A DNA stretch of 32,095 nt from Mycobacteriales bacterium (GTDB lineage: Bacteria > Actinomycetota > Actinomycetes > Mycobacteriales > SCTD01). A program made the position numbers and the translations under genes. Below, piece after piece: positions 1,503-28,468 of this stretch. A model generated the notes under the pieces. The model was not told the DNA's origin. It was given only the letters and a program-made list of their open reading frames with translations, and ran no database searches. The stretch is taken from positions 1-32,095 of the forward strand of contig JBKJQM010000127.1 of assembly GCA_046594005.1 (NCBI GenBank), in the 5' to 3' direction. The stretch's first letter is position 1, and each line of letters starts with the position of its first letter.

Positions 1503-3908
1503 GTGCGCGTCGTCCTCACCGCTTCCCGTCCCCGCCTGGTCGCCGCCCTCGCGGCGGTCACGCTCACCGCGGGGCTCGCCGCGCTGCCCGGCGCCCAGGC
1601 GCAGCAGGCGTCCGGTCCGTACGCCGCGCCCACGGCCCGTGACGCCACGCCCCGGCCGCATGACGCGCCGGTGGCGACCTCGCCGGTGGACGTCGTCAAC
1701 CCGTGCGACCGGACGGTGCTGCCGACGCCCGGCCAGGACGGCACCACGTGCATGCTGCCGTGGCCGAGCAACCTCTACACCACGGGCACCGGCACGGACC
1801 GGCGACTGAACCTGCCGCTGGCCGGGATGCCGAAGAACGCCGCGGGCAAGCCGATCAACCCGCTGCCGTACGCCGACAGCGACGGGTTCTCACCCGGTCA
1901 GCTGATCGTCGTTCGCGTGCCCGGGCTCGACAACCCCGAGGCGTTCCAGCGCACCGGCTCGGTCCCGATCACGGACATGGCCCGCTACCGCGCCGCCGAC
2001 GCCCCGGTCGTCGTCATCGACGTGCAGACCGGCCAGCGGCACCCGATCTGGACCGAGATCGACACCAACCCGCTGAACCCCCTCGCGCAGGCCCAGGTGG
2101 CCTACGACGAGGGTGGCGGCGCCGACGCGGGCGTGCCCGCCCCGCCGGCGCGGCCCGAGAACACGGCCAACGTGAACCTGCTGATCCGGCCGGCCGTGAA
2201 CTTCGTCAACGGCCACCGCTACGTCGTGGGCCTGCGCACCCTGCGCGACAGGACGGGGGCGGTCATCCCCGCGACGCCGACGTTCGCGCAGTACCGCGAC
2301 GGCGGACCGCTGGCCGCTGCCGACCCCCGGACCGAGCGCTACGAGAAGGACGTCTTCCCGGTGCTCACCGAGGCCGGCTTCGCGCGCTCGGACCTCTACC
2401 AGGCCTGGGACTTCTCCGTCGCCAGCGCGACGAACATCGCCGGCCGGCTGCTCCACATGCGCGACGACTCCTTCGCCCAGCTCGGCGACACCAAGCTCGC
2501 GGACCGCAGGGTCCAGGGTGACGCGCCGCCGTTCACCGTCGACGCCGACACGGTCGCCGCGGACGGCGTCCACACGATCACGGGGACGTTCACCGTCCCC
2601 TGCTACATCAGCACGCCGGCCTGCGCGCCGGGCGGTGAGTTCGTCTACGCCGACCCGACGACCCGGATGCAGCCGCTGCAGCTCCCGGGCAACGTGACGA
2701 CCGCGAAGTTCACCTGCAAGGTGCCGCGCCGGGTCTACGACGCGACGACGCTGGAGAAGGTGCGACCGAGCCTGTACGGCCACGGCCTGCTCGGGGGGCA
2801 GGGCGAGGTCGGGCAGGGCCAGGTCGCGGCGATGACCCGTGAGCACGGCTTCATGTACTGCGCGCCGGACTGGGAGGGCTTCGCCACCCAAGACCTGCCG
2901 ACGGTCGCCGCCGCGCTCGTCGACATGGACCGCTTCCCGGCGGTCATCGACCACACCCAGCAGGGCGAGCTGAACTTCCTGCACCTCGCCCGGCTGATGA
3001 TCCACCCGAAGGGACTGTCGTCCAACGCGGCGTTCCAGGTCGACAAGGGCGCGGGCAAGCAGTCCTTCCTCGACACCACGCGCGCCTACTACGACGGCAA
3101 CAGCCAGGGCGGCATCTACGGCGGCACCGTCATGGCGGTCGCCCCGGACATGGACCGGGGCGTGCTCGGGGTGCCCGGCATCAACTACTCCACGCTGCTG
3201 ACCCGCAGCGTCGACTTCGCGCTCTACTCGGTGCCGCTCTACACGACCTACCCGAGCGAGCTCGAGCGGCCGTTGCTGCTCTCGCTCATCCAGATCCTCT
3301 GGGACCGGGCCGATCCCAACGGCTACGTCAACCAGCTCAAGCCGGGCAACGAGCTGCCGAACACCCCTGCCCACAAGGTGATGTACCAGGTGGCGTTCGG
3401 GGACCACCAGGTCGCCAACGTCTCCGCCGAGGTCGCTGCCCGCACCATCGGCGCGGGCCTCGACCCGAGCTCGCTGTCCACCGGACGCTCGCCCGACGTG
3501 ACGCCGCAGTGGGGCATCCCGCGCATCGCGGCCTACCCGTACGACGGCAGCGCCCTGGTCTACTTCGACAGCGGTCCGCAGAGTGCGAGCAACCGGCGAG
3601 GCACCCCGGCGCCGCCCACGACCAACACGCCGCCCAAGCTCGGCCAGGACCCGCACGAGGCCCCGCGCAACACCGCCTGCGGCCGCGTGATGAAGACCAA
3701 CTTCCTGCGCCCGGACGGCGCCGTCACCGCGCCCTGCCTCGGTGCGCCGTACTTCTCCTTCGACTGGCACGGCGCCGACGGCGTGCCCGGTCAGGGGGAC
3801 ACCGTCCAGCCCGGCGACGCCTGGACCTACCCGGCGCCCGCACCCGTCGAGCAGACGCCGACCTGCCCCGGCAAGTCCCGCAAGCCCGGGTGCCCGGCCC
3901 GCGGCTGA
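1503..3908 (+). CDS. large secreted protein with an alpha/beta-hydrolase-like GxSxG site (putative esterase/lipase; family not recognised)
   Basis: 801 aa, with GGAG 6 nt upstream of the GTG. The signal peptide reads MRVVLTASRPRLVAALAAVTLTAGLAALPGAQA. A candidate nucleophile elbow is YYDGNSQGGIYGG and an upstream YGHGLLGG could form the oxyanion region. GC3 is consistently high. Confidence 0.75.
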   Translation: MRVVLTASRPRLVAALAAVTLTAGLAALPGAQAQQASGPYAAPTARDATPRPHDAPVATSPVDVVNPCDRTVLPTPGQDGTTCMLPWPSNLYTTGTGTDRRLNLPLAGMPKNAAGKPINPLPYADSDGFSPGQLIVVRVPGLDNPEAFQRTGSVPITDMARYRAADAPVVVIDVQTGQRHPIWTEIDTNPLNPLAQAQVAYDEGGGADAGVPAPPARPENTANVNLLIRPAVNFVNGHRYVVGLRTLRDRTGAVIPATPTFAQYRDGGPLAAADPRTERYEKDVFPVLTEAGFARSDLYQAWDFSVASATNIAGRLLHMRDDSFAQLGDTKLADRRVQGDAPPFTVDADTVAADGVHTITGTFTVPCYISTPACAPGGEFVYADPTTRMQPLQLPGNVTTAKFTCKVPRRVYDATTLEKVRPSLYGHGLLGGQGEVGQGQVAAMTREHGFMYCAPDWEGFATQDLPTVAAALVDMDRFPAVIDHTQQGELNFLHLARLMIHPKGLSSNAAFQVDKGAGKQSFLDTTRAYYDGNSQGGIYGGTVMAVAPDMDRGVLGVPGINYSTLLTRSVDFALYSVPLYTTYPSELERPLLLSLIQILWDRADPNGYVNQLKPGNELPNTPAHKVMYQVAFGDHQVANVSAEVAARTIGAGLDPSSLSTGRSPDVTPQWGIPRIAAYPYDGSALVYFDSGPQSASNRRGTPAPPTTNTPPKLGQDPHEAPRNTACGRVMKTNFLRPDGAVTAPCLGAPYFSFDWHGADGVPGQGDTVQPGDAWTYPAPAPVEQTPTCPGKSRKPGCPARG

Positions 3909-3927
3909 CCGCTCGTAGGGTGCCCGG

Positions 3928-5487
3928 ATGACCTGGGAACCCGAGCTCGCGGAGCTGGCCCACCGGCAGGCGCTGGCTGCCGAGCTGGGCGGCGCCGAGC
4001 GCGTCGCCCGGCAGCGCGCGACGGGCCGGCGCACGGTGCGCGAGCGCCTCGACGACCTGCTGGACGACGGCAGCTTCGCCGAGGTCGGCAGCGTCGCCGG
4101 CACTGCCGAGTACGACTCGGACGGTGGGCTGACCGGCTTCGTCCCGGCGAGCATCATGGCCGGCACGGGTCGGCTCCACGGCCGTCGGGTCGTCGTGACC
4201 GGCGACGACTTCACCGTCAAGGGCGGCGCCGCGAACCTGCAGCTCGTCGCCAAGCAGGTCGACGTGGAGCGGCGCGCGGTCGCGGAGCGGGTGCCCGTGG
4301 TCCGGCTGCTCGACGGCACCGGCGGTGGCGGCACGGTCGAGTCGCTCGAGCAGTTCGGGCGGACCTACGTGCCATTCAACCCGGGCTGGGACGCCATGGT
4401 CGAGGCGCTGTCGACGGTGCCGGTCGTGACCGCCGCGCTGGGACCGGTCGCCGGGCTCGGGGCGGTGCGCCTGGTGACCAGCCACGTCAGCGTGATGGTG
4501 CGTGAGCTCGCGCAGGTGTTCGTCGCGGGGCCGGCCGTGGTCGAGGCGGGCATGGGCGAGACGGTCGACAAGGAGGCGCTCGGCGGCTGGCGCGTCGCCG
4601 GACGCGCGGGCACCGTCGACCTCGTCGCAGACACCGAGGCCGAGGCGCTCGAGCTGGTGCGCCGGGTGCTGTCCTACCTCCCGCAGCACGTGTGGGAGCT
4701 CCCGCCGGTCGTCGCCTGCGAGGACCCGGAGGATCGCGAGGACGAGGCGCTGCGGTCGATCGTGCCGCGGGAACGGCGTCAGCCGTACGACGTCCGGGCC
4801 CTGCTGCACAGCGTGTTCGACACCGGGTCGGTCCTCGAGCTCGGTCGGCTGCACGCGCCCGGCACCGTCACCGCCTTCGCGCGACTCGGCGGCCGGCCGG
4901 TCGCGGTCCTGTCCAGCGACCCCCGCGTCTACGGCGGCGGGATGACGGCGTCCGGCGCCGACAAGCAGGCCCGCTTCGTCGACCTCGCCGACACGTTCCG
5001 GCTGCCCGTGGTGCACCTGGTCGACCAGCCGGGGTTCGTCATCGGCTCGGCCAGCGAGGCCGCCGCTGTGGTGCGCCACGGCGCGCGGGCGCTGTCGGCG
5101 GTCGAGCAGTCGCGGGTCCCGTGGGCCTCGGTGCTGGTCCGCCGGTGCTTCGGTGTCGCGGGCGCCGGCCACCGTCCCCTGGGTCGCTGGTCGTACCGGA
5201 TCGCGTGGCCGTCGGGCGACTGGGGCTCGCTGCCGATCGAGGGTGGCCTCGAGGTCGCGTTCAAGCGGCTGCTGGCCGAGAGTCCCGACGCCGTAGCGCT
5301 GAAGGAGCAGATCGCAGCCCGGCTCGAGTCCGTCCGCTCGCCCTTCCGCACGGCCGAGAGCTACCTCGTCGAGGAGGTGGTGGATCCGGCCGCCACTCGG
5401 GCACTGCTGTGCGCATGGGCGGCGCAGGCGTACGAGGTCCTCGCGACGCTGCCGGGCGGACCCGTCGGGCGGGGAGCACGCCCCTGA
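3928..5487 (+). CDS. acyl-CoA carboxylase carboxyltransferase (beta) subunit
   Basis: 519 aa. Carboxyl-transferase features include N-terminal RERLDDLLDDGSFAEVG, DFTVKGGA and a second half with SDPRVYGGGMTASGADKQARFVDLADTFRLPVVHLVDQPGF. Confidence 0.85.
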   Translation: MTWEPELAELAHRQALAAELGGAERVARQRATGRRTVRERLDDLLDDGSFAEVGSVAGTAEYDSDGGLTGFVPASIMAGTGRLHGRRVVVTGDDFTVKGGAANLQLVAKQVDVERRAVAERVPVVRLLDGTGGGGTVESLEQFGRTYVPFNPGWDAMVEALSTVPVVTAALGPVAGLGAVRLVTSHVSVMVRELAQVFVAGPAVVEAGMGETVDKEALGGWRVAGRAGTVDLVADTEAEALELVRRVLSYLPQHVWELPPVVACEDPEDREDEALRSIVPRERRQPYDVRALLHSVFDTGSVLELGRLHAPGTVTAFARLGGRPVAVLSSDPRVYGGGMTASGADKQARFVDLADTFRLPVVHLVDQPGFVIGSASEAAAVVRHGARALSAVEQSRVPWASVLVRRCFGVAGAGHRPLGRWSYRIAWPSGDWGSLPIEGGLEVAFKRLLAESPDAVALKEQIAARLESVRSPFRTAESYLVEEVVDPAATRALLCAWAAQAYEVLATLPGGPVGRGARP

Positions 5488-6382: not shown

Positions 6383-6655
6383 CTACTCGTCCTCGCGGGC
6401 CAGCACCAGGGCGATCTGCGTCAGGAGCTGGCGCGGCTCGAGGTCCTCGCTGGCCGCCGCCATCGGCAGCAGGAGCGCGGACAGGTTGAGCAACCCGAAG
6501 TAGCCCTGTGCGAGGGCGCCGACGCCGTCCTCGTCCACCAGCTGCTGCAGGTAGGCGCCGACCGGCCGGGGGGAGCCGGCCTCCATCTCGAGCAGGAAGT
6601 CCGTCAGGGCGCCGATCGCCGCCGAGGTGGCCGCCCGGCTCTCCGGCGTCGTCAC
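6383..6655 (-). CDS. hypothetical small acidic protein (90 aa)
   Basis: GC3 is very high throughout the frame. The gene is in the same orientation as the SDR gene and 56 nt upstream of it. I recognise no motif. Confidence 0.6.
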   Translation of the reverse strand: MTTPESRAATSAAIGALTDFLLEMEAGSPRPVGAYLQQLVDEDGVGALAQGYFGLLNLSALLLPMAAASEDLEPRQLLTQIALVLAREDE

Positions 6656-6831
6656 GCGCCGAACCTACCGGCGGCGTCGGTCAGGGGTGCTGCGACCAGG
6701 GCGCGCGGCAGTCCGGGCACTGCCACAGGAACTCCACATGGCGCGAACCACCTCCGCGGGACCGAATCTTGCGGCAGCATGCGGGCCGGACGCACCGAGC
6801 GCTCCTGGACGCGTGAGAGGAGCCACACCAC

Positions 6832-12376: not shown

Positions 12377-13204
12377 GTGGCCAGCCGGGTTGTGCAGCGC
12401 TCCGAGCGGTGGCTCGCCCGGTTCGGCGGCGACGTGCCGACTCTCGCGCACCTGCTGCTCGACGCCGCCCGGTCGGCAGCCGGCCGTCCTGACGGCATGT
12501 CGGACCTGCGCGAGAGCGCGCAGGGCCTGGGGGTCCTGCGCGCCCAGGAGGGGCACGCCGTCGCCGGGCTCGTCGAGGACCTCGTCTCGCTGCGCGAGGT
12601 GCTGATCGCCGACGGGCACCCGGCGGACGCCGCCCACGCGGTGGTCGACGTGGCGCTCTCGCTGGCCGCGGCCGCCTACGTCGACGAGCTCACCGCGGTC
12701 CTCGGCAGGAAGGCCACGCGCGACCCGCTCACGGGTCTGCCGAACCGCGCGGCCTTCGAGGAGGCGGTGCTGCACGAGATCGCCGGCGGACCCCGGTCGA
12801 CCCCGCCGGCTCTGGTCCTGGTCGACCTCGACCGCTTCAAGCTGGTCAACGACACCGACGGCCACCTTGCCGGGGACGCGGTCCTCGTCGCGGTGGCCGA
12901 TGTCCTGCGCAGCAACCTGCGCCCCTCGGACGTCGCCTGCCGGTTGGGCGGCGACGAGTTCGCGGTCGTCCTCGGACGCACCTCGCCGGCCAAGGCGCTG
13001 CAGATCGCGCGCCGGCTGCTCACGGCTGCCCGCGTCGCGCCGGGGCTGTCGAGCCCGGGCGCGCGCGTCACGTTCAGCATGGGGATCGGCTGGCTGCCGA
13101 CGCCGTCGGAGGCGCAGGACCTGGTGGCGCTGGCCGACGGTGCGCTGTACGCGGTCAAGCGCGCCGGCGGGGACGACGTCCGGACCGCCGAGGGCTCCGC
13201 GTGA
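12377..13204 (+). CDS. GGDEF diguanylate cyclase with a helical N-terminal domain and a canonical I-site
   Basis: 275 aa. Motifs present are DPLTGLPNRAAF, DLDRFKLVNDTDGHLAGD and GGDEF. An RPSD (RxxD) sits exactly 5 residues upstream of GGDEF. An alternative in-frame start is the ATG at 12497. Confidence 0.85.
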   Translation: MASRVVQRSERWLARFGGDVPTLAHLLLDAARSAAGRPDGMSDLRESAQGLGVLRAQEGHAVAGLVEDLVSLREVLIADGHPADAAHAVVDVALSLAAAAYVDELTAVLGRKATRDPLTGLPNRAAFEEAVLHEIAGGPRSTPPALVLVDLDRFKLVNDTDGHLAGDAVLVAVADVLRSNLRPSDVACRLGGDEFAVVLGRTSPAKALQIARRLLTAARVAPGLSSPGARVTFSMGIGWLPTPSEAQDLVALADGALYAVKRAGGDDVRTAEGSA

Positions 13205-14283
13205 TGGGGCGGCACAGCCGGCGCCGGCGGCACCGGCCGTACGGGGGCGCCGACCGGCTGCTCCTGCTCGCGTCGGTGCTCGGCGGGTCTGCCGAGACGG
13301 CGACCGCGCTGGTGCAGCAGGCTCGACGGGGCGTCGGCCGCGGCTGGACGCGCACCGCCGACCAGGAGCTGGTCCCGCTGCTCGCCGGGCTGGCGGACGC
13401 GCTGCCGGACGCCGACGAGGCACGGGGCCGCCTGCTGCAGGTGCTGGTCGACGTCGAGCACCGCCCGCTCGCCACGTGGGGTCCGCGAGTCTGCGGCAGC
13501 GTGGAGGAGGCGCGCCTGCTGCTCGAGGCCGCGCGCCGTCGGACGGGCACCGAGTCGCGCGGAACGGCCTGCCGCGGCTGGCGTCTGGTCGCGAGCCGCG
13601 ACCGGCTCACCCACGCCGAGCAGCAGGCAGCTGACGGTCATCTCGAGCTGTGCCGCCGGTGCCGCGAACGGCTCGCGGCGGTGGAGCGGAGCCGACGTGA
13701 GCTGATCGGTGCGGCCACCGCGACGGCCTCCCTCGTCGCCGCCGGAGCAGCCGTCGCCGGCGGCTCGGTCACGGCTGCGGCGGGCGGGCTGCTCGCCGGC
13801 AAGACCGCCGTTGCCGTCGTGGCTGCGCTCGGCACCGCGGTCGCCGTCGGCGGCGGCATCACGGTGGCGCAGGGGTCGGCCGTCGACCGGCCGCCCTCCT
13901 CGCCGTCCGTGCAGGTCGCGACCAGCAGTGCGCCGAGCCCGACGACGACGCCGCCGGCGAGCAGTCCTGCCGGTACGGCGCCGGTCCCCGGTACGTCGGT
14001 CACACCCGTGGTGCCCGCCGCTCCCGCAGCAGACGGAGGCGGTGCGTCTCCCACGACCGGTCCTGCCCAGGCGCCGCTGCCGGAGGCGAGCCTGCCGGCC
14101 GGCGCACCGGTGCTGCCTTCCCTGCCACCGCTGCCGGAGGTGTCCGTGCCGGTGCTGCCGTTGCCCCTGCCGTCGTCCCTGCTGCCCCCGTCGTCGCTGC
14201 CGCTGCCCCCGCTGCCCCCGCTGCCCCCGTTGCCCGTCCCGCTGCCGTCGTCGATCCAGGTGCCCTTCCCCGTCCTGCGCTGA
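13201..14283 (+). CDS. ZAS-motif (HxxxCxxC) anti-sigma-factor-like single-pass membrane protein with a Pro-rich extracytoplasmic tail
   Basis: 360 aa. The start GTG at 13201 (or ATG at 13204) overlaps the TGA of the upstream GGDEF gene (GTGATG). The N-terminus has sigma region-4-like stretches (ADRLLLLASVLGGSAETATALVQQARR and LLQVLVDVEHRPL...SVEEARLLLEAARRR). These are followed by GHLELCRRCRERL, an Ala/Gly-rich TM segment and a P/S/T/L-rich tail. Confidence 0.7.
   Translation: MMGRHSRRRRHRPYGGADRLLLLASVLGGSAETATALVQQARRGVGRGWTRTADQELVPLLAGLADALPDADEARGRLLQVLVDVEHRPLATWGPRVCGSVEEARLLLEAARRRTGTESRGTACRGWRLVASRDRLTHAEQQAADGHLELCRRCRERLAAVERSRRELIGAATATASLVAAGAAVAGGSVTAAAGGLLAGKTAVAVVAALGTAVAVGGGITVAQGSAVDRPPSSPSVQVATSSAPSPTTTPPASSPAGTAPVPGTSVTPVVPAAPAADGGGASPTTGPAQAPLPEASLPAGAPVLPSLPPLPEVSVPVLPLPLPSSLLPPSSLPLPPLPPLPPLPVPLPSSIQVPFPVLR
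14203..14229 (+). repeat. three perfect tandem copies of CTGCCCCCG (encoding LPP repeats)
   Basis: Read directly at 14203..14211, 14212..14220 and 14221..14229. A fourth identical copy lies at 14182..14190. All lie inside the Pro-rich tail of the ZAS-like ORF. Confidence 0.9.
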
Positions 14284-14431
14284 CGCGCGAGCGGGGACGA
14301 CTGCCCGCGGCCACGGAGTCGGGACCTTCGGCCCCTGCCGGTGCACCTGTTCGCGTGGACGATGGGGCGAGCCCGAAGGACCGACAGGGCCGCCCGACAC
14401 CACCACCCAGGCCCGACCCCGGAGGTCACCC

Positions 14432-14650
14432 GTGAACACCCGCCGCCTCGCCCTGCTCGCCGGCTCTGCCCTGCTGGTGCCGCTGGCGCTGGTGGTCACC
14501 GCCGGCCCCGCCCTCGCCGTTCCGCCGAGCCCCACGTTCGGCTCGCACGTCGCTTCGTGTGCGCAGATCTCGACCGGCTTCACCGCTGAGATGAACCCGA
14601 GTCACCACCACGGCCCCGACGCCGACGACATGACCGGCATGTCCTGCTGA
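14432..14650 (+). CDS. small secreted His/Met/Cys-rich peptide (72-aa precursor, about 43-aa mature); candidate metal (copper) binding
   Basis: GGAGG (14421..14425) lies 6 nt upstream of the GTG at 14432. The Sec-type signal reads VNTRRLALLAGSALLVPLALVVTAGPALA|VP. The predicted mature part is VPPSPTFGSHVASCAQISTGFTAEMNPSHHHGPDADDMTGMSC. Codons are GC3-rich. In the ORF track it is hidden inside a 313-aa shadow ORF. Confidence 0.7.
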   Translation: MNTRRLALLAGSALLVPLALVVTAGPALAVPPSPTFGSHVASCAQISTGFTAEMNPSHHHGPDADDMTGMSC

Positions 14651-14772: not shown

Positions 14773-15363
14773 GTGGCCGGCGGCGCCGCCGAGAAGGCGA
14801 TGCTCGACGCGGTGACCGCAGCCGTGACGTCCGCCGCCATGACGACGGCCGCCGGCCGGCCGCGGGTCCTGGACGCTGGTGCGGGCACCGGCGCGCTGTC
14901 CCGCCGGCTGGCGCAGCTGCTGCCCGGCACGCACCCCGTCCTCGTGGACCTCTCGCCGGGCATGCTCGAGGGCGCCCTCGACCTGGCCGACCCGCGGGCG
15001 GTCGCGTCGGTGGCGGCGCTGCCGTTCGCCGACGACACGTTCGACGTGGTCATGTCCGCCTGGGTCATCGAGACGGTCGACGACCCCGCCGCCGCGGTGA
15101 CGGAGATGCTGCGGGTGCTGAGGCCGGGCGGACTGGTCGCGTACTCGTTCTGCTCCCGTCCCGCCCGTCGCTGGGACCGGTGGCGGACCGGCCCGACGCG
15201 GGCGGTCGTCCACGCGCTGTTCGCCGGCCACTTCCTGCGCGAGGAGCGGACGCCGTTCCACGACTGCGCGGCGTCACGGCGCAGCTCGTTCGGATCCGGA
15301 GCGGCCTCGGTCGTGCTCCTCGGCAAGTGCTGCACCATCGCAGAGGCCGACAATACCCCTTAG
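14773..15363 (+). CDS. class I SAM-dependent methyltransferase (start probably upstream of the first canonical start codon)
   Basis: The SAM-binding motif is VLDAGAGTGALSRRL, followed by DLSPGML, FDVVMSAWVIE and LRPGGLV. The frame stays open upstream to 14590 and reads ...ARVLATYERAARGYDRYWRRLW, which looks like a genuine MTase N-terminus. No ATG/GTG/TTG precedes it in frame. Confidence 0.75.
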   Translation: MAGGAAEKAMLDAVTAAVTSAAMTTAAGRPRVLDAGAGTGALSRRLAQLLPGTHPVLVDLSPGMLEGALDLADPRAVASVAALPFADDTFDVVMSAWVIETVDDPAAAVTEMLRVLRPGGLVAYSFCSRPARRWDRWRTGPTRAVVHALFAGHFLREERTPFHDCAASRRSSFGSGAASVVLLGKCCTIAEADNTP

Positions 15364-15369
15364 GGGTAT
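15353..15369. promoter_or_regulatory. perfect 8-1-8 palindrome ATACCCCT-T-AGGGGTAT; candidate CsoR/RicR-type copper-repressor operator
   Basis: Read directly. It overlaps the TAG stop of the methyltransferase ORF and lies about 80 nt upstream of the 15450 start. The GC tract with TA flanks matches the general architecture of CsoR-family operators. The 1-nt spacer rules out an RNA hairpin. Confidence 0.55.
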
Positions 15370-15449
15370 CATCGGTCGGTCCCTTCGACGTGGGGGCAGG
15401 TGTGGAGCCCCGCCGCCTCGAGCGGCGGCGCCCAGGGAGCAGACATACC

Positions 15450-15890
15450 GTGACGAGCATGGGCGGGACTGCGGTGAGGACGAGGGCGGCCTACCCGCTC
15501 GCTGTCCTCGGCGTGCTGCTCGGGCTGCTCGCGATGCACGGCCTCGCCAGCGCCCACCACGCCGCTGCGAGCTCGGCCCGGCTCGTGACGCAGGACGTGC
15601 CCGACCCCGCGGCGCACCACCACGGCAGCGCCGTCGCGCTGTCCGCTGCTGCTCGCGACGTCGTGCTTGCCGCGCCAGCACGCCCGGCCTGTGACCAGGA
15701 CTGCCCTGCGGTCGTCGTGCTCTGCCTCGCGGTGCTGACCGGCGCCGCGCTCGCGCTGCTGCTGGCCGGCCGCCGCTCCCGGGCACTGCCTCTGCCGCCC
15801 GCGCGGCGTACCGCCGGCGCGCTTCCACGTCCGGCGCGACACGCTCGGGGGCCCGATCCCGTACGGGAGCTCTGCATCAGCAGGACGTAG
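15450..15890 (+). CDS. small His-rich membrane protein (resembles the DUF6153-type proteins that accompany DUF305 genes)
   Basis: 146 aa, with GGGAG about 10 nt upstream of the GTG at 15450. The N-terminal TM segment LAVLGVLLGLLAMHGLASAHH is followed by AAHHHGS, a Cys pair (ACDQDC) and a second TM segment VVVLCLAVLTGAALALLLAG. The family assignment is from memory only. Confidence 0.65.
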   Translation: MTSMGGTAVRTRAAYPLAVLGVLLGLLAMHGLASAHHAAASSARLVTQDVPDPAAHHHGSAVALSAAARDVVLAAPARPACDQDCPAVVVLCLAVLTGAALALLLAGRRSRALPLPPARRTAGALPRPARHARGPDPVRELCISRT

Positions 15891-15977
15891 GCCGACCGCC
15901 GCGCGCCACCGACCCCAAAGGCGCAGACGGCCCGACCCGCACGTCCCTGACACCCTCTTCCCGAACGGAGCACCACC

Positions 15978-16580
15978 ATGAACAAGCGCCACCTCACCGC
16001 GTCCGCGCTCCTCGCGTCCGCACTCGTCCTCACCGCCTGCGGCAGCAGCGGCGACGACACGGCCGCCGCCAACGGTGGCAGCAGCACCAGCGCCGAGACG
16101 GCCAAGGGCAACGACGCCGACATCGCCTTCCTGTCCGGCATGAAGCCGCACCACGAGCAGGCCGTCGAGATGAGCGAGATGGTCCTCGCGGCGAACCCGC
16201 CCGCCGAGGTCGCGGCGATCGCGCAGCAGATCAAGGGCGCACAGGCCCCCGAGATCGAGCAGATGACGACCATGCTCGCGGACCTCGGCGAGGGCGCCGA
16301 CGGCGGCCACAGCATGGGCAGCGGCATGGACATGGGCGCTGCCGGCCACGAGGGGATGATGAGCGACGCCATGATGACAGCGCTCGACGACGCGACCGGC
16401 ACCGACGCGGCCCGGCTCTACCTCGAGGGCATGGTCCGGCACCACCAGGGCGCCATCAAGGCCAGCGACGACGAGATCGCCGAAGGGAAGTACGCGCCCG
16501 CCCTCGAGCTGGCGAAGAAGATCAAGGCGGCGCAGACCACCGAGATCGCCGAGATGCAGGACCTGCTCGCGAACCTGTAG
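15978..16580 (+). CDS. DUF305 family lipoprotein (ferritin-like four-helix protein, associated with copper homeostasis)
   Basis: 200 aa. The lipobox is LVLTAC. There are two DUF305 signature repeats: DIAFLSGMKPHHEQAVEMSEMVL and RLYLEGMVRHHQGAIKASDDEI, plus two ...AQ.PEI.QM-type helices. Confidence 0.85.
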   Translation: MNKRHLTASALLASALVLTACGSSGDDTAAANGGSSTSAETAKGNDADIAFLSGMKPHHEQAVEMSEMVLAANPPAEVAAIAQQIKGAQAPEIEQMTTMLADLGEGADGGHSMGSGMDMGAAGHEGMMSDAMMTALDDATGTDAARLYLEGMVRHHQGAIKASDDEIAEGKYAPALELAKKIKAAQTTEIAEMQDLLANL

Positions 16581-16797: not shown

Positions 16798-17526
16798 GTG
16801 ACCGCGAGACTGAGGAGGCACCCCGTACTGTCCGCCGTGCTCGCCGTCCTGCTCGTCCTCGCCGCCGTCTGGGCCGTCAAGCTCGTCCGGCTCCAGCGCA
16901 GTGTCGCCGCGAACGCCTCCTACTGGGCCGAGCCCCGCGGCCAGGCCGGCGGGCTGCTGTACGTCGCACTCGGCGACAGCGCCGCGCAGGGCATCGGCGC
17001 GAGCAGTCCGCGGAGGGGCTACGTGTCCCTCATCGCGGGCCGGCTCCGCGACCAGACAGGCGGGCCGGTCGAGATCGTCAACCTGAGCAGGTCCGGGGCA
17101 CGCATCGAGGACGTCCTGGACCGGCAGCTCCCGGCGCTGGCCGCGCTGGGCAGGACGCCCGACGTGGTGACCGTGGCGATCGGCGGGAACGACATCCGCG
17201 CGTACGACCGGACGACGTTCGCCCAGCAGGTCGACCGCCTGACCAGTGCACTGCCCGCCGGGACCTACGTCGCCGACGCGCCCTACTTCATGCACGGGCG
17301 GTGGGAGCGCGATGCCCAGCAGGCCGCTGAGCTGCTCAGGACGAGCGTCCGCGCGCACGGCCTCGAGCCGGTCGCGCTCCACCAGGCCCTCAGGGCGCAG
17401 GGCTCGCAGGCGATGCTCACGCAGTTCGCCGCCGACTGGTTCCACCCGAACGACCGCGGCCACCGGGTCTGGGCCGACGCGTTCTGGCAGCGCATGCAGG
17501 CGGACCCGGCCCTGCGCCCCCGCTGA
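16798..17526 (+). CDS. membrane-anchored SGNH/GDSL hydrolase
   Basis: 242 aa, with GAGGAGG upstream of the GTG. The N-terminal TM segment is VLSAVLAVLLVLAAVWAV. SGNH blocks are present: block I (ALGDSAAQG), block III (AIGGNDI) and block V (DWFHPNDRGH). Confidence 0.85.
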   Translation: MTARLRRHPVLSAVLAVLLVLAAVWAVKLVRLQRSVAANASYWAEPRGQAGGLLYVALGDSAAQGIGASSPRRGYVSLIAGRLRDQTGGPVEIVNLSRSGARIEDVLDRQLPALAALGRTPDVVTVAIGGNDIRAYDRTTFAQQVDRLTSALPAGTYVADAPYFMHGRWERDAQQAAELLRTSVRAHGLEPVALHQALRAQGSQAMLTQFAADWFHPNDRGHRVWADAFWQRMQADPALRPR

Positions 17527-23405: not shown

Positions 23406-24626
23406 ATGGCGATCACCCTGTACGGCACCGGCTGGTGCAGCGACTGCAAGCGCTCCAAGCAGTTCCTCGGCGAGCAGCGCGTGCACTACGACTACGTGGA
23501 CGTCGACGCCGACCCCGCGGGACGCGCCGTCGTCCAGGGCCACAACGGCGGCAAGGACATCATCCCCACGATCGTCTTCGACGACGGCAGCGTGCTCGTC
23601 GAGCCGAGCAACGCCGAGCTCGCCGCCAAGCTCGGCCTGCAGACGGCCGCGAAGAACGCCTTCTACGACCTCGTCGTCGTCGGATCGGGGCCGGCCGGTC
23701 TGACCGCTGCCCTGTACGCCGCCCGCGAGGGCATGGCGGTGCTCGTCGTCGAGCGGGGCGGCGTCGGCGGGCAGGCGGGCGTGACCGAGCGGCTCGACAA
23801 CTTCCCGGGCTTCCCGGAGGGCGTGACCGGGTCCGAGCTCGCCGACCGGCTGCGGGCGCAGGCCGAGCGCTTCGGCGTCGAGGTCCTTCCGGCGCAGGAG
23901 GTCACGAGCATCGCCTCCGACGGTGCCTACCGGGTCGTCACCACCGGCGACGGCAGGGAGGTCACCGCCTTCGCGGTCCTGCTGACCATGGGCTCGACCT
24001 ACCGGCGGCTCGGGATCCCCGGCGAGGACGAGCTCATCGGCGCGGGCGTCCACTTCTGCGCCACCTGCGACGGGCCGTTCTACCGGGACCGCGCGGTCGT
24101 GGTGATCGGCGGCGGCAACAGCGCCGGTGAGGAGAGCGTCTTCCTCGCGAAGTTCGCCAGCTCGGTCACCGTCGTGACCCGCGACGCCTCGATGTCGGCC
24201 AGCAAGGTCGTGGTGCAGAAGCTGAGCGAGGATCCGCGCATCTCCGTGCTGACCGGCGCTACCCCCACGGGCTTCGTCACCGACGACGCCGGCAAGCTCG
24301 TCGCGCTGGAGGTGCAGCGCGACGGCGGCACCGAGCAGGTGCCTGCCGACGGTGCCTTCGTCTTCATCGGCCTGTCGCCCAACAACCAGCTCGTCGCCGA
24401 CCTGGTCGAGCTGGACGCCGCCGGCTTCGTCGTCGCCGACCTCGGCATGCAGACGAGTGTCCCCGGGGTCTTCGTCGCGGGCGATGTCCGGAGCGGGTCG
24501 ACCAAGCAGGCCGCGAGCGCCTCGGGCGAGGGTGCGTCCGCCGCACTCGCGATCCGTCGCTACGTCGAGCCCCTGGCGAGCGGGATGCGTCCGGGCCTCG
24601 CCGTGTCCAGCGGGGCGAGCATCTGA
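23406..24626 (+). CDS. glutaredoxin/mycoredoxin-like domain fused to thioredoxin-disulfide reductase
   Basis: 406 aa, with GGAGG 4 nt upstream of the ATG. The N-terminal roughly 80 aa form a thioredoxin fold: ITLYGTGWCSDCKRSKQFL...GGKDIIPTIVFDDGSVL. The rest is TrxR-like: FAD site VVVGSGPAGLTAALYAAR, redox-active CATCDG, NADPH site VVIGGGNSAGEE and C-terminal GVFVAGD. Confidence 0.85.
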   Translation: MAITLYGTGWCSDCKRSKQFLGEQRVHYDYVDVDADPAGRAVVQGHNGGKDIIPTIVFDDGSVLVEPSNAELAAKLGLQTAAKNAFYDLVVVGSGPAGLTAALYAAREGMAVLVVERGGVGGQAGVTERLDNFPGFPEGVTGSELADRLRAQAERFGVEVLPAQEVTSIASDGAYRVVTTGDGREVTAFAVLLTMGSTYRRLGIPGEDELIGAGVHFCATCDGPFYRDRAVVVIGGGNSAGEESVFLAKFASSVTVVTRDASMSASKVVVQKLSEDPRISVLTGATPTGFVTDDAGKLVALEVQRDGGTEQVPADGAFVFIGLSPNNQLVADLVELDAAGFVVADLGMQTSVPGVFVAGDVRSGSTKQAASASGEGASAALAIRRYVEPLASGMRPGLAVSSGASI

Positions 24627-25012
24627 TGGCCGGCCCGGTCGCGCTGACCGAGGCGCTCGCCCGTGTCGACGCCCTGTGGAGCCCGCACGTCGTCCTGCAG
24701 GTGAACGAGTACGACGTCCGCGTCGCCAAGGTGGCCGGCGAGCACGTCTGGCACGCGCACGACGACACCGACGAGTTCTTCCTGGTGCTGGACGGCGAGC
24801 TGACGATCGCCCTCGAGGAGCCGTCCGGCGGACGGACCGTCGTGCTGCCGACCGGCAGCGTCTTCGTGGTCCCGCGCGGGACCCGGCACCGGCCGTCCTC
24901 GGCAGGCGGCGCGTCCATCCTCATGCTCGAGCCGTCCGGCACCCTCTCGACGGGGGACGCCGTCGACCTGCCGGGGCACGTCGACCGCACCACGGGTCAC
25001 GCCCTGGACTGA
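24626..25012 (+). CDS. cupin domain protein
   Basis: 128 aa. Its ATG shares one base with the TGA of the previous gene (TGATG). The cupin core reads HVWHAHDDTDEFFLVLDGELTI...VVPRGTRHRP. Confidence 0.8.
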   Translation: MAGPVALTEALARVDALWSPHVVLQVNEYDVRVAKVAGEHVWHAHDDTDEFFLVLDGELTIALEEPSGGRTVVLPTGSVFVVPRGTRHRPSSAGGASILMLEPSGTLSTGDAVDLPGHVDRTTGHALD

Positions 25013-25723
25013 CCGCCCAGCCCCGCCCACGTGCGGTCGGCCACAGCTCGAGCGGCGGCCCGGAGGTGAGCGCGCCCGCCAGGGTCCGAGCGGTGGCCTC
25101 ACGCAGCGCTGACTGCCGCCGTGCTCGGGTGACCGCTGACCCCGGCAACGTCGCGGCGTCGGCGACGGGCTCGCGGGTGACGCCCGGCCAGACCCGGCCC
25201 TGGTGGCCTCGTAGACCCGGTCGACAGCTCAGGATGTCAGTCAGCAAGCGCGTGTCGCGCGCCCCTCACGACCGACGCGGGGGTTGCAGGACCCTGGACG
25301 GTTGCGCCGGCCCGCCGGTATTCTCGCAGCGGTTGAACCAGCAGCCGTGGCGTGCCAGCCGCCTCAGACCCTGGGTCCGCGGAGCCACCTCGTCACCTCC
25401 TTGCCCTCGAAGGTGTGCGCTGTGTCCGCGGTCGAACAAGGCTCAAGCCAGAGTGCTCGCTCACGCCGATCACGGCGGTCTGAACTCGACGTGGTCGTGG
25501 ATCAGGTCTGCGGCATCCAGGCGTGGACGCACGCCCACAAGGGCCGCCTGGAGGCGGAGGGGGCGGGCTCCCGCGAGGCGCGCTTGGACACGGCCCGCCG
25601 CCGAGATCTGCTGGAGCGGCAGTAGCAGGCCGTCGTGGATCACACCGCCCTGCATCTTGCGCAGACCAGCGGACTGCTGCACACGTTCGCGGCGACCCAT
25701 GCGGTGGTCGCGCACCGTCAGCC

Positions 25724-26047
25724 GTGGTTCAAGGGCAAGGTGATCGGGGCCTTCGCCAGGGCGGAGTCGTGCTGGCCGCTGACCTGGAGAACGGCGCTGA
25801 TGCCCTCGGCGTGGTTGTCGCTGAGCAGCCCGACTTCCTCATCCTCGATGACAAGCTGCCCATGTTCAGCGGGCTGGAGGTCACGAAGGCGGTCGCCCGG
25901 TTCGCGCCGCGCACCGTGGTGCTGGTGCAGGTGGCGGACCACTGGGAGGTCGGCCCCTTCTTGGACGCAGGTGCAACGACGGTCTACACCCGGCGCACGT
26001 CGCCCGCAGACATCGCTGCCGACGTGGTCGCGACCGTCAACGCGTGA
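25724..26047 (+). CDS. stand-alone receiver-like (degenerate REC / pseudo-receiver) domain protein
   Basis: The segment ...VVLAADLENGADALGVVVAEQPDFLILDDKLPMFSGLEVTKAVARFAPRTVVLVQ... matches the central REC pattern (NG.EAL...PD.ilLD..mP.m.G.Ev). The N-terminal acidic DD pocket and the conserved Lys context are not evident. I chose the GTG at 25724; the upstream part of the track ORF is not protein-like. Confidence 0.45.
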   Translation: MVQGQGDRGLRQGGVVLAADLENGADALGVVVAEQPDFLILDDKLPMFSGLEVTKAVARFAPRTVVLVQVADHWEVGPFLDAGATTVYTRRTSPADIAADVVATVNA

Positions 26048-26229
26048 CGGCTCGAACTGCTGTCGGTCGCCGCTCGCTCGAGACAGGCGGAGTACCGTCC
26101 AGGGCCTGGGCCACCCTGCGAGGTGGCGAACGGGTGTTGTCGGAACAGCGTCTGTGGACGGGTCCCTTCGAGGGCTCCCCCGGCGGGTCCGCCGTTGCGG
26201 TCCTGCACCCGTCCTGAGAGCAGACGCGC

Positions 26230-26940
26230 ATGAGCGCGGATCGCCCTGCAGTCCCGCCGTACGAGGCGTTCGACGAGCTGTCCCGTCTCATCGTCTCCGA
26301 CCACTCGGTCGACTCGGTGCTGACCGCCGTCGCCGAGGTGGGCAAGAGGCTGCTGCCCACCGCCGCCGAGATCTCCGTGACCCTGGTTCGCGGCGCCGCC
26401 GCCGAGACCGTCGCCACAACGGGCCCGCTGGCCGTCCTGATGGACGAGCGGCAGTACGAAGGAGGAGCCGGTCCCTGCCTCACAGCGGCGAAGACCGGGC
26501 AACTCGTCGAGGTGAGCGATGCCGCGTCGGCCGAGCAGTGGCCGTTGTTCGCAGCGGGTGCCCGCGAGCACGGCGTCGGCAGCAGCCTCAGCGTCCCGGT
26601 GAAGCTGCCCGAGCCGATCAGCGCCGGCCTGAACATGTACAGCCTGCGGAAGGACGGGTTCGCCGAGCCGGACGTCGAACTTGCGCGCACCCTGGCTGCC
26701 TACGCCGCGGCTGCGCTCGCCAACATCCACTTGTTCGAGTCGCAGAAGCGGGTGGCTGAGCACCTGGAGCGAGCACTGGAGTCCCGTGGGGTGATCGACC
26801 AGGCCAAGGGCATCGTGATGGCAGAGCATCGATGCACAGCGGACCAGGCGTTCGCGCGTCTGGTCGAGATGTCCCAACGGACCAACCGCAAGCTCCGGGA
26901 AGTTGCCGAGGAGCTCGTCAAGCGCACCGTGGACGGCTGA
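26230..26940 (+). CDS. GAF + ANTAR domain RNA-binding regulator
   Basis: 236 aa. GAF-like features are GPCLTAAKTGQLVEVSD...WPLF...HGVGSSLSVPV...AGLNMYS. The C-terminal ANTAR domain reads LERALESRGVIDQAKGIVMAEHRCTADQAFARLVEMSQRTNRKLREVAEELV. Confidence 0.88.
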   Translation: MSADRPAVPPYEAFDELSRLIVSDHSVDSVLTAVAEVGKRLLPTAAEISVTLVRGAAAETVATTGPLAVLMDERQYEGGAGPCLTAAKTGQLVEVSDAASAEQWPLFAAGAREHGVGSSLSVPVKLPEPISAGLNMYSLRKDGFAEPDVELARTLAAYAAAALANIHLFESQKRVAEHLERALESRGVIDQAKGIVMAEHRCTADQAFARLVEMSQRTNRKLREVAEELVKRTVDG

Positions 26941-27516: not shown

Positions 27517-27816
27517 CCCATCGCCAGCAGGTTGTCGGGGGAGGGGACCGGAACCAGCCGCTGGAAGGAAGGGACCGGGGAGCGGTAGCGCTCAGGCTCG
27601 AGATTCGGTGGAGAGCGCCTGCGCGGTGCTCAGGTCGGAGGGAAGACGCGGGCGTCTCCCCACCGGATCCCGGGGCAGCTCAGCATCACCCACACCAGGC
27701 TTCCAGGACCTGTGCGATCGGTCCGGCACTGCGTGGGCGTCGAGCTCGAGGGGGTCGAGGGCGCTCCGAGGGCGACCGCGCTCGCTTCCGGTCCCACCGG
27801 GACGGAGAACGACTCT

Positions 27817-27844
27817 GGGCCCTCTTCCGCAGGGAAGAAAGCCC
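27817..27844 (-). terminator. hairpin immediately downstream of tRNA-Lys
   Basis: On the minus-strand RNA it reads GGGCUUUCUUCC cugc GGAAGAGGGCCC, a 12-bp stem including two G-U pairs. On the plus strand those two positions are C-A mismatches, so the structure is strand-specific for the tRNA transcript. Confidence 0.6.
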
Positions 27845-27857
27845 AGGTCAGTTGGGG

Positions 27858-27930
27858 TGCGCCGCCAGGGACTTGAACCCCGAACCCGCGGATTAAGAGT
27901 CCGCTGCTCTGCCAATTGAGCTAGCGGCGC
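27858..27930 (-). tRNA. tRNA-Lys (anticodon CTT)
   Basis: The reverse complement folds by hand as a cloverleaf: acceptor GCGCCGC/GCGGCGC, D-arm GCTC-AATTGGCA-GAGC and anticodon arm GCGGA-CTCTTAA-TCCGC (anticodon CTT). The variable loop is GGGTT and the T-arm is CGGGG-TTCAAGT-CCCTG, with discriminator A. The 3' CCA is not encoded. Confidence 0.93.
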
Positions 27931-27959
27931 GCGTCGTACGGGTGAGGACGATAGCAGTC

Positions 27960-28346
27960 CTAGGACGGCTCCCCGTCGACAGGCGGGGCGGGCGTGCTCG
28001 GGCTCAGCGGGCGTAGGCCCTCGGCGGCGCGGGCGTCGCGCAGCAGCAGCGCGAACTCCTCGGAGTGCAGATCCGCGAGCGCGTCCTGAGCAGCGCGCCG
28101 GGCCCGTCGCTCGCGCACCTCCAGGTCGCCGCTGCCGACCGACCCGAGCCGCGGCCCGCGAACGGCCGGCTCGCTCGGCGCGGCGGCCGGGCGCGGCGCC
28201 GTGCGGGTGCGGGTGACGGGGGCGGCGCGCTTGCGGGGCGCCGGCTCGGGCGTCGTCAGGCAGGGCGTGCAGGTCGTCGCGTCGCCCTCGAACTCGGCGG
28301 CGGGGCGCACCTTGCGGCAGGTGTCGCACCGTCTCCAGCCACTCAC
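27960..28346 (-). CDS. hypothetical protein with an N-terminal CxxC...CxxC zinc-ribbon and a Pro/Ala/Arg-rich linker
   Basis: GC3 is high from the GTG at 28346: VSGWRRCDTCRKVRPAAEFEGDATTCTPCL.... The track ORF extends to 28451, but that extension has poorer GC3. It would also leave only 17 nt to the divergent acyl-CoA synthetase start. Confidence 0.6.
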   Translation of the reverse strand: MSGWRRCDTCRKVRPAAEFEGDATTCTPCLTTPEPAPRKRAAPVTRTRTAPRPAAAPSEPAVRGPRLGSVGSGDLEVRERRARRAAQDALADLHSEEFALLLRDARAAEGLRPLSPSTPAPPVDGEPS

Positions 28347-28468
28347 CGTCTGGGCCCTGCAGGTCGCGTCGCCACACCGCCACGGTACGGCGCGGGCGGC
28401 TCCGCTCGACGTGCCGGTCCCCGTACGGCAGGTTGCAGTGACCCGCACCACAGCCCGAGGAGCACGTC

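Follow-up and report, generated by a model that had tools for sequence, protein, structure and literature searches.

A predicted CsoR/RicR-type operator preceding a DUF6153-DUF305/CopM gene pair

Genes and sequence elements of the locus

The window, i.e., the whole stretch of DNA analyzed here, is a complete contig of 32,095 nt. At positions 15353..15369 it reads ATACCCCTTAGGGGTAT, a site with no strand assigned that we list as a predicted CsoR/RicR type-2 operator. Direct reading of the sequence bears out the original description of two perfect 8-nt arms around a single central base (ATACCCCT-T-AGGGGTAT, with the central T at 15361), and an inverted-repeat search places this perfect 8-1-8 palindrome inside a longer, imperfect one (15347..15375, likewise strandless; CCGAcaATACCCCTtAGGGGTATcaTCGG) with 14-nt arms that are 86% complementary. 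The center of the palindrome coincides with the end of a SAM-dependent methyltransferase gene on the forward strand (14773..15363; Pfam Methyltransf_11, 6.7e-21; start uncertain, with the frame open from 14590): the TAG at 15361-15363 is indeed its stop codon, as had been proposed, and the translation of this frame ends in ...AEADNTP*. Orthologues of the methyltransferase in two related loci (L127 and L129) share 83-84% identity with it, and the C-terminal tails differ beyond ...GKCCT.

The next gene on the same strand (15450..15890) encodes a His-rich membrane protein of the DUF6153 family, of 146 or 143 aa depending on whether translation begins at GTG 15450, which has a GGGAG 9 nt upstream, or at the conserved ATG 15459. 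The palindrome lies 80 nt from the former and 89 nt from the latter, inside the range of box-to-start distances for copZ/copA targets. Against Pfam PF19650 (DUF6153) the product of 15450/15459-15890 scores 22.4 bits, under the cut-off of 27.7; among its 100 homologues many are annotated with PF19650, including relatives at 50-58% identity, and those in L129, L092 and L038 exceed the cut-off. The motifs LLGLLAMHGL and ...ELCISRT (ELC/SISR) are common to the window protein and the DUF6153 homologues. This gene is followed by one for a DUF305/CopM-family lipoprotein (15978..16580, forward strand; lipobox LTAC; Pfam DUF305, 1.3e-41), so that the originally described arrangement, a site some 80 nt upstream of a His-rich membrane protein and then a DUF305 lipoprotein, holds. 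The lipoprotein scores 142.6 bits against PF03713 (DUF305; cut-off 27) and falls just under the cut-off of 90 for NCBIfam CopM (88.1 bits, 2.9e-25). CopM is a Cu(I)-binding protein that makes cells resistant to copper (PMC4335983), and the window lipoprotein is presumed to be a copper-binding protein of the envelope. None of the papers searched mentions DUF6153, and a search for DUF305 together with CsoR found no prior description.

Two putative promoters can be recognized between the palindrome and the DUF6153 gene. The predicted -10 hexamer of the upstream one, P2, is TATCAT at 15367..15372 (forward strand), which overlaps the right arm of the palindrome and would place a transcription start at about 15379. 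A TANNNT hexamer occurs at box offset 14, the modal value, in 23 of 48 high-GC sites that precede a csoR or HMA gene; the window palindrome has its TATCAT at exactly this offset, and an identical TATCAT is present in L078 and L080. No -35-like TTG was found at the usual offset from TATCAT, and a simple sigma-70 promoter/terminator scan of 15150-16100, which is uninformative for actinomycete promoters, found nothing. The downstream element, P1, is a putative leaderless-type promoter with a conserved -10-like hexamer (TACCGT, 15446..15451, forward strand) exactly 7 nt before ATG 15459; the pattern TANNNT-N7-ATG/GTG, with varying middle bases, is present in 14/14 DUF6153 loci compared, and likewise in L143 and L145. 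P1 lies 77 nt downstream of the box, and the box center is ~98 nt upstream of the P1 start. Because the box is too far from P1 to occlude it, the model set out below requires the predicted second promoter, P2.

A GC-rich inverted repeat (CGCCGCC-N6-GGCGGCG, 15411..15430, forward strand) is located within a block, CGCCTCGAsCGGCG..., that is conserved upstream of DUF6153 genes. The "GC hairpin" noted here originally thus exists as a 7-bp inverted repeat, while in L121-L127 and L145 the block is conserved as sequence and not as a stem. This conserved block includes the TANNNT exactly 7 nt before the ATG, an element that resembles a leaderless-type promoter. The possibility that the repeat is a terminator dividing the box from the gene was rejected, given the absence of a T-run and a conservation confined to the sequence. 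As for the palindrome itself, the assertion that it is unable to form an RNA hairpin proved wrong: with a 3-nt loop the RNA can form a stem of 7 bp extended by 6 outer pairs, and the 121-nt region folds with z = -2.7 vs. shuffles. An RNA-level explanation therefore needs rebuttal on other grounds. No T-run follows the palindrome stem-loop and no rho-independent terminator was called there, and an Rfam search of 15200-15600 returned a chance miRNA match only (E=0.68).

Agreement with the CsoR/RicR consensus and occurrence across genomes

The palindrome agrees at 17/17 core positions with the published streptomycete CsoR consensus, ATATACCCCTNAGGGGTATAT (PMC3902906), and departs from this 21-nt sequence at its outer flanks, which are CA/CA here vs. 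AT/AT. It contains the TAC-X9-GTA arrangement (TAC at 15354-56, spacer CCCTTAGGG, GTA at 15366-68), which is needed for CsoR binding and whose mutation, by the swaps TAC->TTC and GTA->GAA, abolishes it in Streptomyces lividans (PMC3902906); the RicR box, TACCCCGCTGGGTA, is a site of the same type (PMC3944814). The palindrome is the sole such site in the window even with 3 mismatches permitted, vs. a shuffle expectation of 0.01 per window for sites with up to 3 mismatches and an analytic expectation of 1.0e-6 per window for the exact pattern. Taken as a class, perfect 8+8 palindromes show no excess over Markov simulations (7 observed vs. 10.6 +/- 4.7). The departure from chance lies in the specific sequence and, in a window of 74% G+C, in its A/T content, in line with the first impression of a site conspicuous in GC-rich DNA; it does not lie in palindromy itself.

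A genome-scale motif scan, as proposed along with the original prediction, was performed on public genomes, one genome per species, and yielded at least 120 loci with the exact motif. Among the 120 matches listed, 87 have csoR, copZ, copA or DUF305 within 1.5 kb, which establishes the association with csoR/copZ/copA genes; the corresponding fraction for high-GC genomes only, among the matches listed, is 60/77. Directly downstream of the motif, a PF02583 CsoR gene is found at 38 sites and an HMA/CopZ/P1B-ATPase gene at 37, i.e., one or the other at 75 of the 120 sites listed. Together with the consensus identity, this association supports the reading of the palindrome as a DNA site for a CsoR/RicR-family protein likely acting in trans on the metal genes downstream, a reading that had been understated.

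The contig carries no CsoR gene that could be detected, even at E<=10, with an HMM built from the 38 CsoR genes, and Pfam scans of the remaining contig genes did not find one either, in agreement with the earlier statement that no CsoR-like ORF is visible. A 94-aa ORF on the reverse strand (6383..6664) was considered as a CsoR candidate and rejected, having no Pfam, NCBIfam or CsoR-HMM match. The label "orphan" given to the site carries no weight, since the window is the whole 32-kb contig and control of several loci in trans is usual for both CsoR and RicR (PMC3902906, PMC3944814).

The association of a CsoR-type box with the DUF6153-DUF305 cassette recurs independently in more distant lineages, with differing spacings. 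In L092 (Microbacterium sp. NPDC056736) an exact box precedes DUF6153 and DUF305 at a spacing of 21 nt; in L140 (a metagenome contig) a degenerate box, ACACCCC-CCT-GGGGTAT, stands between a divergent csoR-copZ pair, whose CsoR has the canonical C-H-C, and DUF6153-DUF305 at 79 nt; and in L143 (another metagenome contig) GTACCCCC-C-GGGGGTAC is found about 255 nt upstream of the cassette. These three loci are unannotated sequence observations and not characterized systems. In two mycobacteria (L082 and L098) the box is followed by DUF305 and then csoR. Conservation at orthologous loci, whose failure had been named beforehand as counting against the reading, was not borne out; the link reappears in L092, L140 and L143, but the box is absent from the nearest relatives of the locus: none with up to 3 mismatches was found in L121-L139 or L141-L142, and a CsoR-type box is present in only 2 of 16 homology-retrieved DUF6153-DUF305 loci having upstream sequence. 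The cassette occurs in three arrangements, i.e., behind an operon of an ArsR/SmtB-type regulator, an ATPase and DUF2470 (L121-L127), behind an unrelated palindrome, GTCCGTACGGAC, which takes the place of the box within the identical methyltransferase-DUF6153-DUF305 gene order (L129), and behind the perfect CsoR box of the window. We have also considered the box as a scar left by deletion of a 3.6-kb ArsR-ATPase-DUF2470 block such as that seen in L127. This was rejected on the evidence of L129: because the methyltransferase and DUF6153 genes are adjacent there without the box, the block is independent of the box.

Proposed regulation and alternative explanations

The explanation that we favor, with a probability of roughly 0.78, is that the palindrome is a type-2 operator of a Cu(I)-sensing repressor of the CsoR/RicR family encoded elsewhere in the genome. 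At low copper, apo-CsoR would occupy the box (in Streptomyces lividans, as two tetramers per site) and, as the box overlaps the -10 hexamer TATCAT (15367-15372), the bound repressor would block RNA polymerase. Binding of Cu(I) to CsoR would then release the repressor from the DNA and permit transcription from near 15379 into the DUF6153 and DUF305/CopM genes, whose products, a membrane protein and a lipoprotein, are presumed to be copper-handling proteins of the envelope. The copper-responsive P2 would probably operate in tandem with P1, the conserved leaderless-type promoter right before the DUF6153 ATG.

A genuine CsoR-family operator might also serve another role. The protein bound there might be a paralogue responding not to copper but, e.g., to persulfide, nickel or aldehyde, or the site might be a roadblock that stops transcripts reading through from the methyltransferase gene. 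It might also be a recent acquisition, or a site in decay, that affects the cassette little and leaves it to be driven mainly by the conserved leaderless-type promoter. The presence of the conserved P1 77 nt downstream of the box and the lack of box conservation in the closest relatives fit such a role, as does the sensing of non-copper effectors by members of the family (PMC8643695). Five exact boxes in other phyla, among the matches listed, lie upstream of thioredoxin genes, and the CsoR-family protein of one relative (L122) is without the His ligand. We nevertheless consider this role unlikely: csoR, copZ or copA stands beside the great majority of the exact boxes among the matches listed, the genes downstream of the window site belong to the copper-binding CopM family (PMC4335983), a perfect 17/17 site is unlike decay, and the -10 box is at the modal offset.

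The palindrome could instead act only in RNA, as a 3' stem-loop of the methyltransferase mRNA (an I-shaped terminator or a stabilizer), its likeness to a CsoR box being coincidental. The predicted fold (the 7-bp stem with its 3-nt loop and 6 outer pairs, and the z of -2.7 for the 121-nt region) and the position of the stem across the methyltransferase stop codon speak for this reading, which we rate as very unlikely in view of the missing T/U run and terminator call, the lack of an Rfam family match, and the methyltransferase 3' ends of the orthologues L127 and L129, which have no comparable stem. By chance alone, identity to a 16-base protein-binding consensus is moreover expected 1e-6 times; a role in RNA, though compatible with operator function, leaves the sequence unexplained. 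That the palindrome is a functionless product of chance is, in our estimation, extremely improbable. The window has no excess of perfect 8+8 palindromes (7 seen vs. about 10.6 expected), so much is consistent with chance, but this particular sequence is expected only 1e-6 times, it stands where one gene ends and copper genes follow, and its motif is strongly linked to CsoR regulons across the genomes of the matches listed.

Under the favored explanation, the site is a textbook kind of CsoR operator at a target not yet described, and no new mechanism is involved; the understanding of CsoR operators is unchanged, as the palindrome conforms perfectly to a consensus that has been in print since 2012-2013. 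If the operator is confirmed, the actinomycete CsoR regulon gains the DUF6153-DUF305/CopM pair, DUF6153 is placed for the first time in a functional context, that of envelope copper stress, and a cytoplasmic Cu(I) sensor becomes tied to an exported copper-binding protein. Confirmation would also provide a small and clean case of regulatory turnover, in which close relatives have put one cassette under the control of different metal sensors. A broader and more speculative reading, which we hold to be unlikely, is that DUF6153-DUF305 constitutes a portable envelope copper module with its own leaderless-type promoter that has been re-wired to different metal sensors among close actinomycetes, and that in this window a single 17-bp palindrome combines a stop codon, a 3' RNA stem-loop and a copper-responsive operator/promoter. 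Were this true, the locus would be a compact case of regulatory turnover and of a palindrome with dual DNA and RNA function, and DUF6153 would receive its first regulatory assignment.

Relation to known copper-responsive systems

The closest resemblance in sequence is to the type-2 operators of S. lividans (csoR-4375, copZA1 and copZA2), whose 17-nt core is identical to the window site. The likeness extends to the TAC-X9-GTA inverted repeat around G/C tracts in a high-GC actinomycete and to the regulation in trans of loci away from csoR, namely copZA1 and copZA2 (PMC3902906). The S. lividans targets are copZ-copA or csoR, whereas the window target is the DUF6153-DUF305/CopM cassette; the stop codon of a co-directional upstream gene falls within the window box; the outer flanks of the box are CA instead of the AT of the 21-nt consensus; and the 80-89 nt between the box and the start codon include a second, conserved putative promoter.

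The RicR regulon of Mycobacterium tuberculosis (ricR, lpqS, mymT, socAB, mmcO and Rv2963; PMC3944814) offers a second parallel, in which a CsoR paralogue represses dispersed loci through a TACCC...GGGTA promoter palindrome and in which control extends beyond efflux pumps to envelope lipoproteins and membrane proteins. It differs in that no target named in PMC3944814 is described as DUF305 or DUF6153, and in that the spacing of the box TACCCCGCTGGGTA is shorter than that of the window palindrome. With the copMRS system of Synechocystis the likeness lies in the target, CopM and the window lipoprotein sharing a family (NCBIfam CopM): the Synechocystis CopM is a DUF305 protein that is copper-induced, exported and Cu(I)-binding, with a function in resistance (PMC4335983). 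The regulatory inputs stand in contrast, since periplasmic copper, sensed by the two-component system CopRS, governs CopM in the cyanobacterium, whereas the cassette in the window would take its signal from a cytoplasmic CsoR-type repressor.

Sequence of the box and a possible role in RNA

The palindrome ATACCCCTTAGGGGTAT at 15353..15369 (the box) is, in our estimate with a probability of roughly 0.78, a functional operator of the CsoR family that governs transcription into the downstream cassette, which comprises genes for a His-rich DUF6153 membrane protein and a DUF305/CopM-family lipoprotein. A direct read of 15100-15700 confirmed both the perfect 8-nt arms flanking T15361 and the TAG (15361-15363) inside the box as the stop codon of the methyltransferase ORF, whose product ends in ...GKCCTIAEADNTP*; an imperfect extension of the arms reaches 15347..15375. 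The original prediction held that the palindrome stands out from its background, which is true of the exact sequence (1.0e-6 occurrences expected in the window from base composition, with A and T at ~13% each) but not of perfect 8+8 palindromes, a class without enrichment (7 observed vs. 10.6 +/- 4.7 simulated). The improbable part of the box is its particular sequence, not palindromy as a class, and it remains a single copy in the 32,095-nt window even when three mismatches are allowed (0.01 matches predicted by shuffles).

The streptomycete CsoR operator consensus is a 21-nt pseudopalindrome, ATATACCCCTNAGGGGTATAT; S. lividans CsoR occupies each site as two tetramers released by Cu(I), and any base swap in the TAC/GTA inverted repeat (halves 9 bp apart) abolishes binding (PMC3902906). 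The box agrees with this consensus at all 17 core positions, including TAC-N9-GTA, and differs solely in the outermost flanks (CA/CA in the window vs. AT/AT). On the strength of this match, the box reads as a flawless copy of the consensus core rather than the look-alike originally described, the CsoR/RicR-type assignment itself having been essentially right.

An RNA hairpin had been considered excluded by the 1-nt spacer, which proved wrong: in the RNA fold of 15340-15460, AUACCCC-UUA-GGGGUAU forms a 7-bp stem with a 3-nt loop and six outer pairs, and the 121-nt stretch has a folding energy of -57.7 kcal/mol (z = -2.7). A palindrome acting at the RNA level only would, however, leave the identity to a protein-binding consensus unexplained; moreover, a U-run is absent, the terminator scan finds no terminator, Rfam yields no family match, and no such stem is present at orthologous methyltransferase 3' ends. 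Besides its probable function as a DNA operator, the box may have a secondary RNA role.

Genomic context of the exact motif

A scan for exact ATACCCCTNAGGGGTAT, in which a single genome represented each species of bacteria and archaea, gave at least 120 loci, mostly in Actinomycetota, with others in Bacillota, Saccharibacteria, Chloroflexota and a few further groups; the figures that follow are among the matches listed. The closest plausible ORFs to the left and right of each site were taken, their products were clustered, and Pfam was run on representatives. Directly downstream lies a PF02583 CsoR-family gene (38 sites), an HMA/CopZ or P1B-ATPase gene (37), thioredoxin (5), DUF4396 (3) or DUF305 (2), with smaller groups including MFS transporters. 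By HMM searches, csoR, copZ, copA or DUF305 is found within 1.5 kb of the box at 87/120 of the listed loci (60/77 in high-GC and 27/43 in low-GC genomes), in a genome-scale test of the kind proposed with the original prediction; at 10 of the other 33 the site is <600 nt from the end of the sequence block examined. Because of this association with copper genes among the matches listed, any exact box found in a high-GC actinomycete has a very high a priori likelihood of being a working operator of the CsoR family.

Exact boxes directly upstream of thioredoxin genes (L028, L041, L097, L099, L117) belong to Bacillota/Clostridia and a Chloroflexota (Roseiflexaceae) MAG; the cited CsoR papers do not list thioredoxin as a regulon member, and it is not mentioned in PMC4938975. 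DUF4396 membrane-protein genes directly follow exact boxes in Amycolatopsis and Streptomyces (L001, L021, L101), with a Cys-rich protein next in L101. Two loci (L075, 745-787; L110, 7876-7918) carry two tandem exact boxes with starts 26 nt apart, equal to the 26-bp dual-site spacing of gut Firmicutes CsoR promoters (PMC4938975).

Gene order and promoter geometry in the window

Third-position G+C analysis and Pfam scans place the box (15353-15369) between genes for a GGDEF protein (12377-13204), a Pro-rich ORF (13201-14283) and the methyltransferase (up to 15363; Methyltransf_11, 6.7e-21) on one side and, on the other, those for DUF6153 (15450/15459-15890), the DUF305 lipoprotein (15978-16580; 1.3e-41, lipobox LTAC), a GDSL lipase (16798-17526) and a YibE/F membrane protein (up to 18736). 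The DUF6153 match in the window (22.4 bits) is below the Pfam cut-off of 27.7; homologues carry PF19650 and share with the window protein the motifs LLGLLAMHGL and ...ELCISRT. The DUF305 protein also matches the NCBIfam "CopM family metallochaperone" (2.9e-25); Synechocystis CopM is an exported, copper-induced Cu(I)-binding resistance protein (PMC4335983). The stretch 13201-14590, between the GGDEF and methyltransferase genes, holds a 360-aa ORF that is rich in Pro and Ala and matches no Pfam family. The methyltransferase of homologous locus L127 has a predicted length of 476 aa, so the N-terminal region of the window gene may be longer or different. Around a GAF-ANTAR regulator gene (26218-26940), no ORF passes the third-position G+C filter at 24626-26218 and 27590-28440.

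In agreement with the original prediction as regards CsoR, HMMs from 38 CsoR and 37 HMA/ATPase proteins found no CsoR, CopZ or CopA encoded in the window, even with filters off at E<=10; as the window is a complete contig, the absence of csoR there says nothing about the genome. A 94-aa ORF at 6383-6664 (minus strand) was rejected as a CsoR by Pfam and NCBIfam scans.

Promoter geometry was compared with 75 reference sites from the matches listed, oriented by a downstream csoR or HMA gene. At high-GC reference sites TANNNT starts at box offset 14 in 23/48, where it is the right-arm TAT plus three bases, and at offset 16 in 13/48, with a -35 TTG peak at offset -9 (11/48), and many csoR genes begin 9-13 nt past the box, implying leaderless transcripts. 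TATCAT at offset 14 in the window (15367-15372), a hexamer identical in loci L078 and L080, predicts a transcription start near 15379; no -35-like TTG is found at the reference offset, which reads AGGCCG. On the minus strand TATTGT (15350-15355) is likewise a TANNNT at offset 14 with no minus-strand gene there; conceivably, the box also controls a transcript that runs antisense to the methyltransferase gene.

A second element lies closer to DUF6153: TANNNT exactly 7 nt before the conserved ATG in 14/14 DUF6153 loci, and also in L143 and L145, with T, A and T kept and the middle varying (TACCGT, TATTCT, TACTCT, TACTGT, TATCGT, TAGGTT); in the window TACCGT (15446-15451) precedes the ATG at 15459. 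This TANNNT-N7-ATG arrangement, kept even 36-50 nt behind DUF2470 inside an operon, looks like the signature of a leaderless-type promoter (P1). The GC hairpin proposed at 15411-15430 exists as a repeat, but within a block (CGCCTCGAsCGGCG...) in which the sequence is conserved and the stem is not. The (C/T)TCGAsC(G/T)GC block (window 15411-15432; also L121, L122, L125-L127, L131, L133, L134, L138, L145) lies ~22 nt upstream of the P1 -10 hexamer, a greater distance than a standard -35 element allows, and could be a site of another regulator or alternative sigma factor. The box centre, ~98 nt upstream of the conserved DUF6153 start, is too far from P1 to occlude it, and the best model therefore needs a box with its own promoter; we infer that this promoter (P2) would act in tandem with the conserved P1. 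Translation of transcripts from P2 could begin at the in-frame GTG at 15450, which is preceded by GGGAG at a distance of 9 nt.

Recurrence of the pairing and possible turnover of regulators

DUF305 lies within 1.5 kb of an exact box at 7/120 of the matches listed vs. roughly 0.1 by random placement, our estimate on the assumption that a genome of 5-8 Mb has a few DUF305 genes. In Microbacterium sp. NPDC056736 (L092) an exact box is followed after 21 nt by DUF6153 (PF19650, 43.7 bits) and then a DUF305 lipoprotein; two mycobacterial loci (L082, L098) have the order box, DUF305, csoR; and in Streptomyces maoxianensis (L101) the cassette adjoins a box-DUF4396 unit. A metagenomic locus retrieved by DUF305 homology (L140) reads copZ <- csoR <- ACACCCC-CCT-GGGGTAT -> DUF6153 -> DUF305, its 95-aa CsoR (PF02583, 9e-29) having the RLxR motif and Cys...His-x3-Cys ligands. 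In locus L143, retrieved by DUF6153 homology, DUF6153-DUF305 is preceded at ~255 nt by a perfect GTACCCCC-C-GGGGGTAC, after which comes TACTGT; of DUF4396, no more than a similar fragment, ATLHCPTGCATGEG (3746-3990), is kept between this box and DUF6153.

Lack of conservation at orthologous loci was named with the original prediction as a result that would speak against it, and in the narrow sense this is what L121-L139, L141 and L142 show (no box with up to three mismatches), although the box-cassette pairing recurs in other lineages. Of the cassettes retrieved by homology, 16 have usable sequence upstream, and a CsoR-type box is present in only two of these, L140 and L143; the closest DUF6153 homologues are only ~57% identical to the window protein. 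In L121, L122-L124 and L127 an operon precedes the cassette by 36-50 nt and encodes a regulator of the HTH_5 (ArsR/SmtB) type, a cupredoxin/HMA P-type ATPase and DUF2470; L121 and L127 have the same GDSL lipase after the cassette as the window, and in L127 the orthologous methyltransferase (83% identity) is just upstream of the operon. This ~3.6-kb block (L121 6372-9964, L122 6358-9964, L127 6370-9949; counterpart 15363-15450 in the window, 3207-3386 in L129) shows presence/absence between orthologous methyltransferase and cassette, and a conserved ACCCGTGCAGnCGCACGGTTGTACGG upstream of HTH_5 is probably its operator. The minus strand of L122 (3743-4569) also encodes a protein of the CsoR family, 137 aa long, in which the usual His ligand is apparently replaced (...LEDQLDAC...). 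Its partner is a DUF7937 membrane protein, it has no type-2 box upstream, and it is possibly a non-copper paralogue.

The closest syntenic relative, L129, has the gene order of the window, methyltransferase (84%) -> DUF6153 -> DUF305 (71%), with no CsoR box in the 178-nt spacer; a different perfect palindrome, GTCCGTACGGAC (3305-3325), stands where the window has the box, which suggests another regulator there. Methyltransferase homology stops just past ...AAGTGCTGCAC, leaving the box in a non-conserved tail. Given this position and its absence from orthologous loci, the box is lineage-specific, and its independent recurrence with the cassette in other lineages speaks for recruitment on several occasions and against an accident.

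Overall, the literature search found nothing on DUF6153 and nothing tying DUF305 to CsoR, and what is new is the DUF6153-DUF305/CopM cassette as a candidate CsoR target, the evidence for different regulators of this cassette among close relatives, and the conserved leaderless-type promoter ahead of DUF6153. In kind the box is ordinary, a consensus operator for a CsoR/RicR repressor that would act in trans, of the same kind as the M. tuberculosis RicR box TACCCCGCTGGGTA (PMC3944814).
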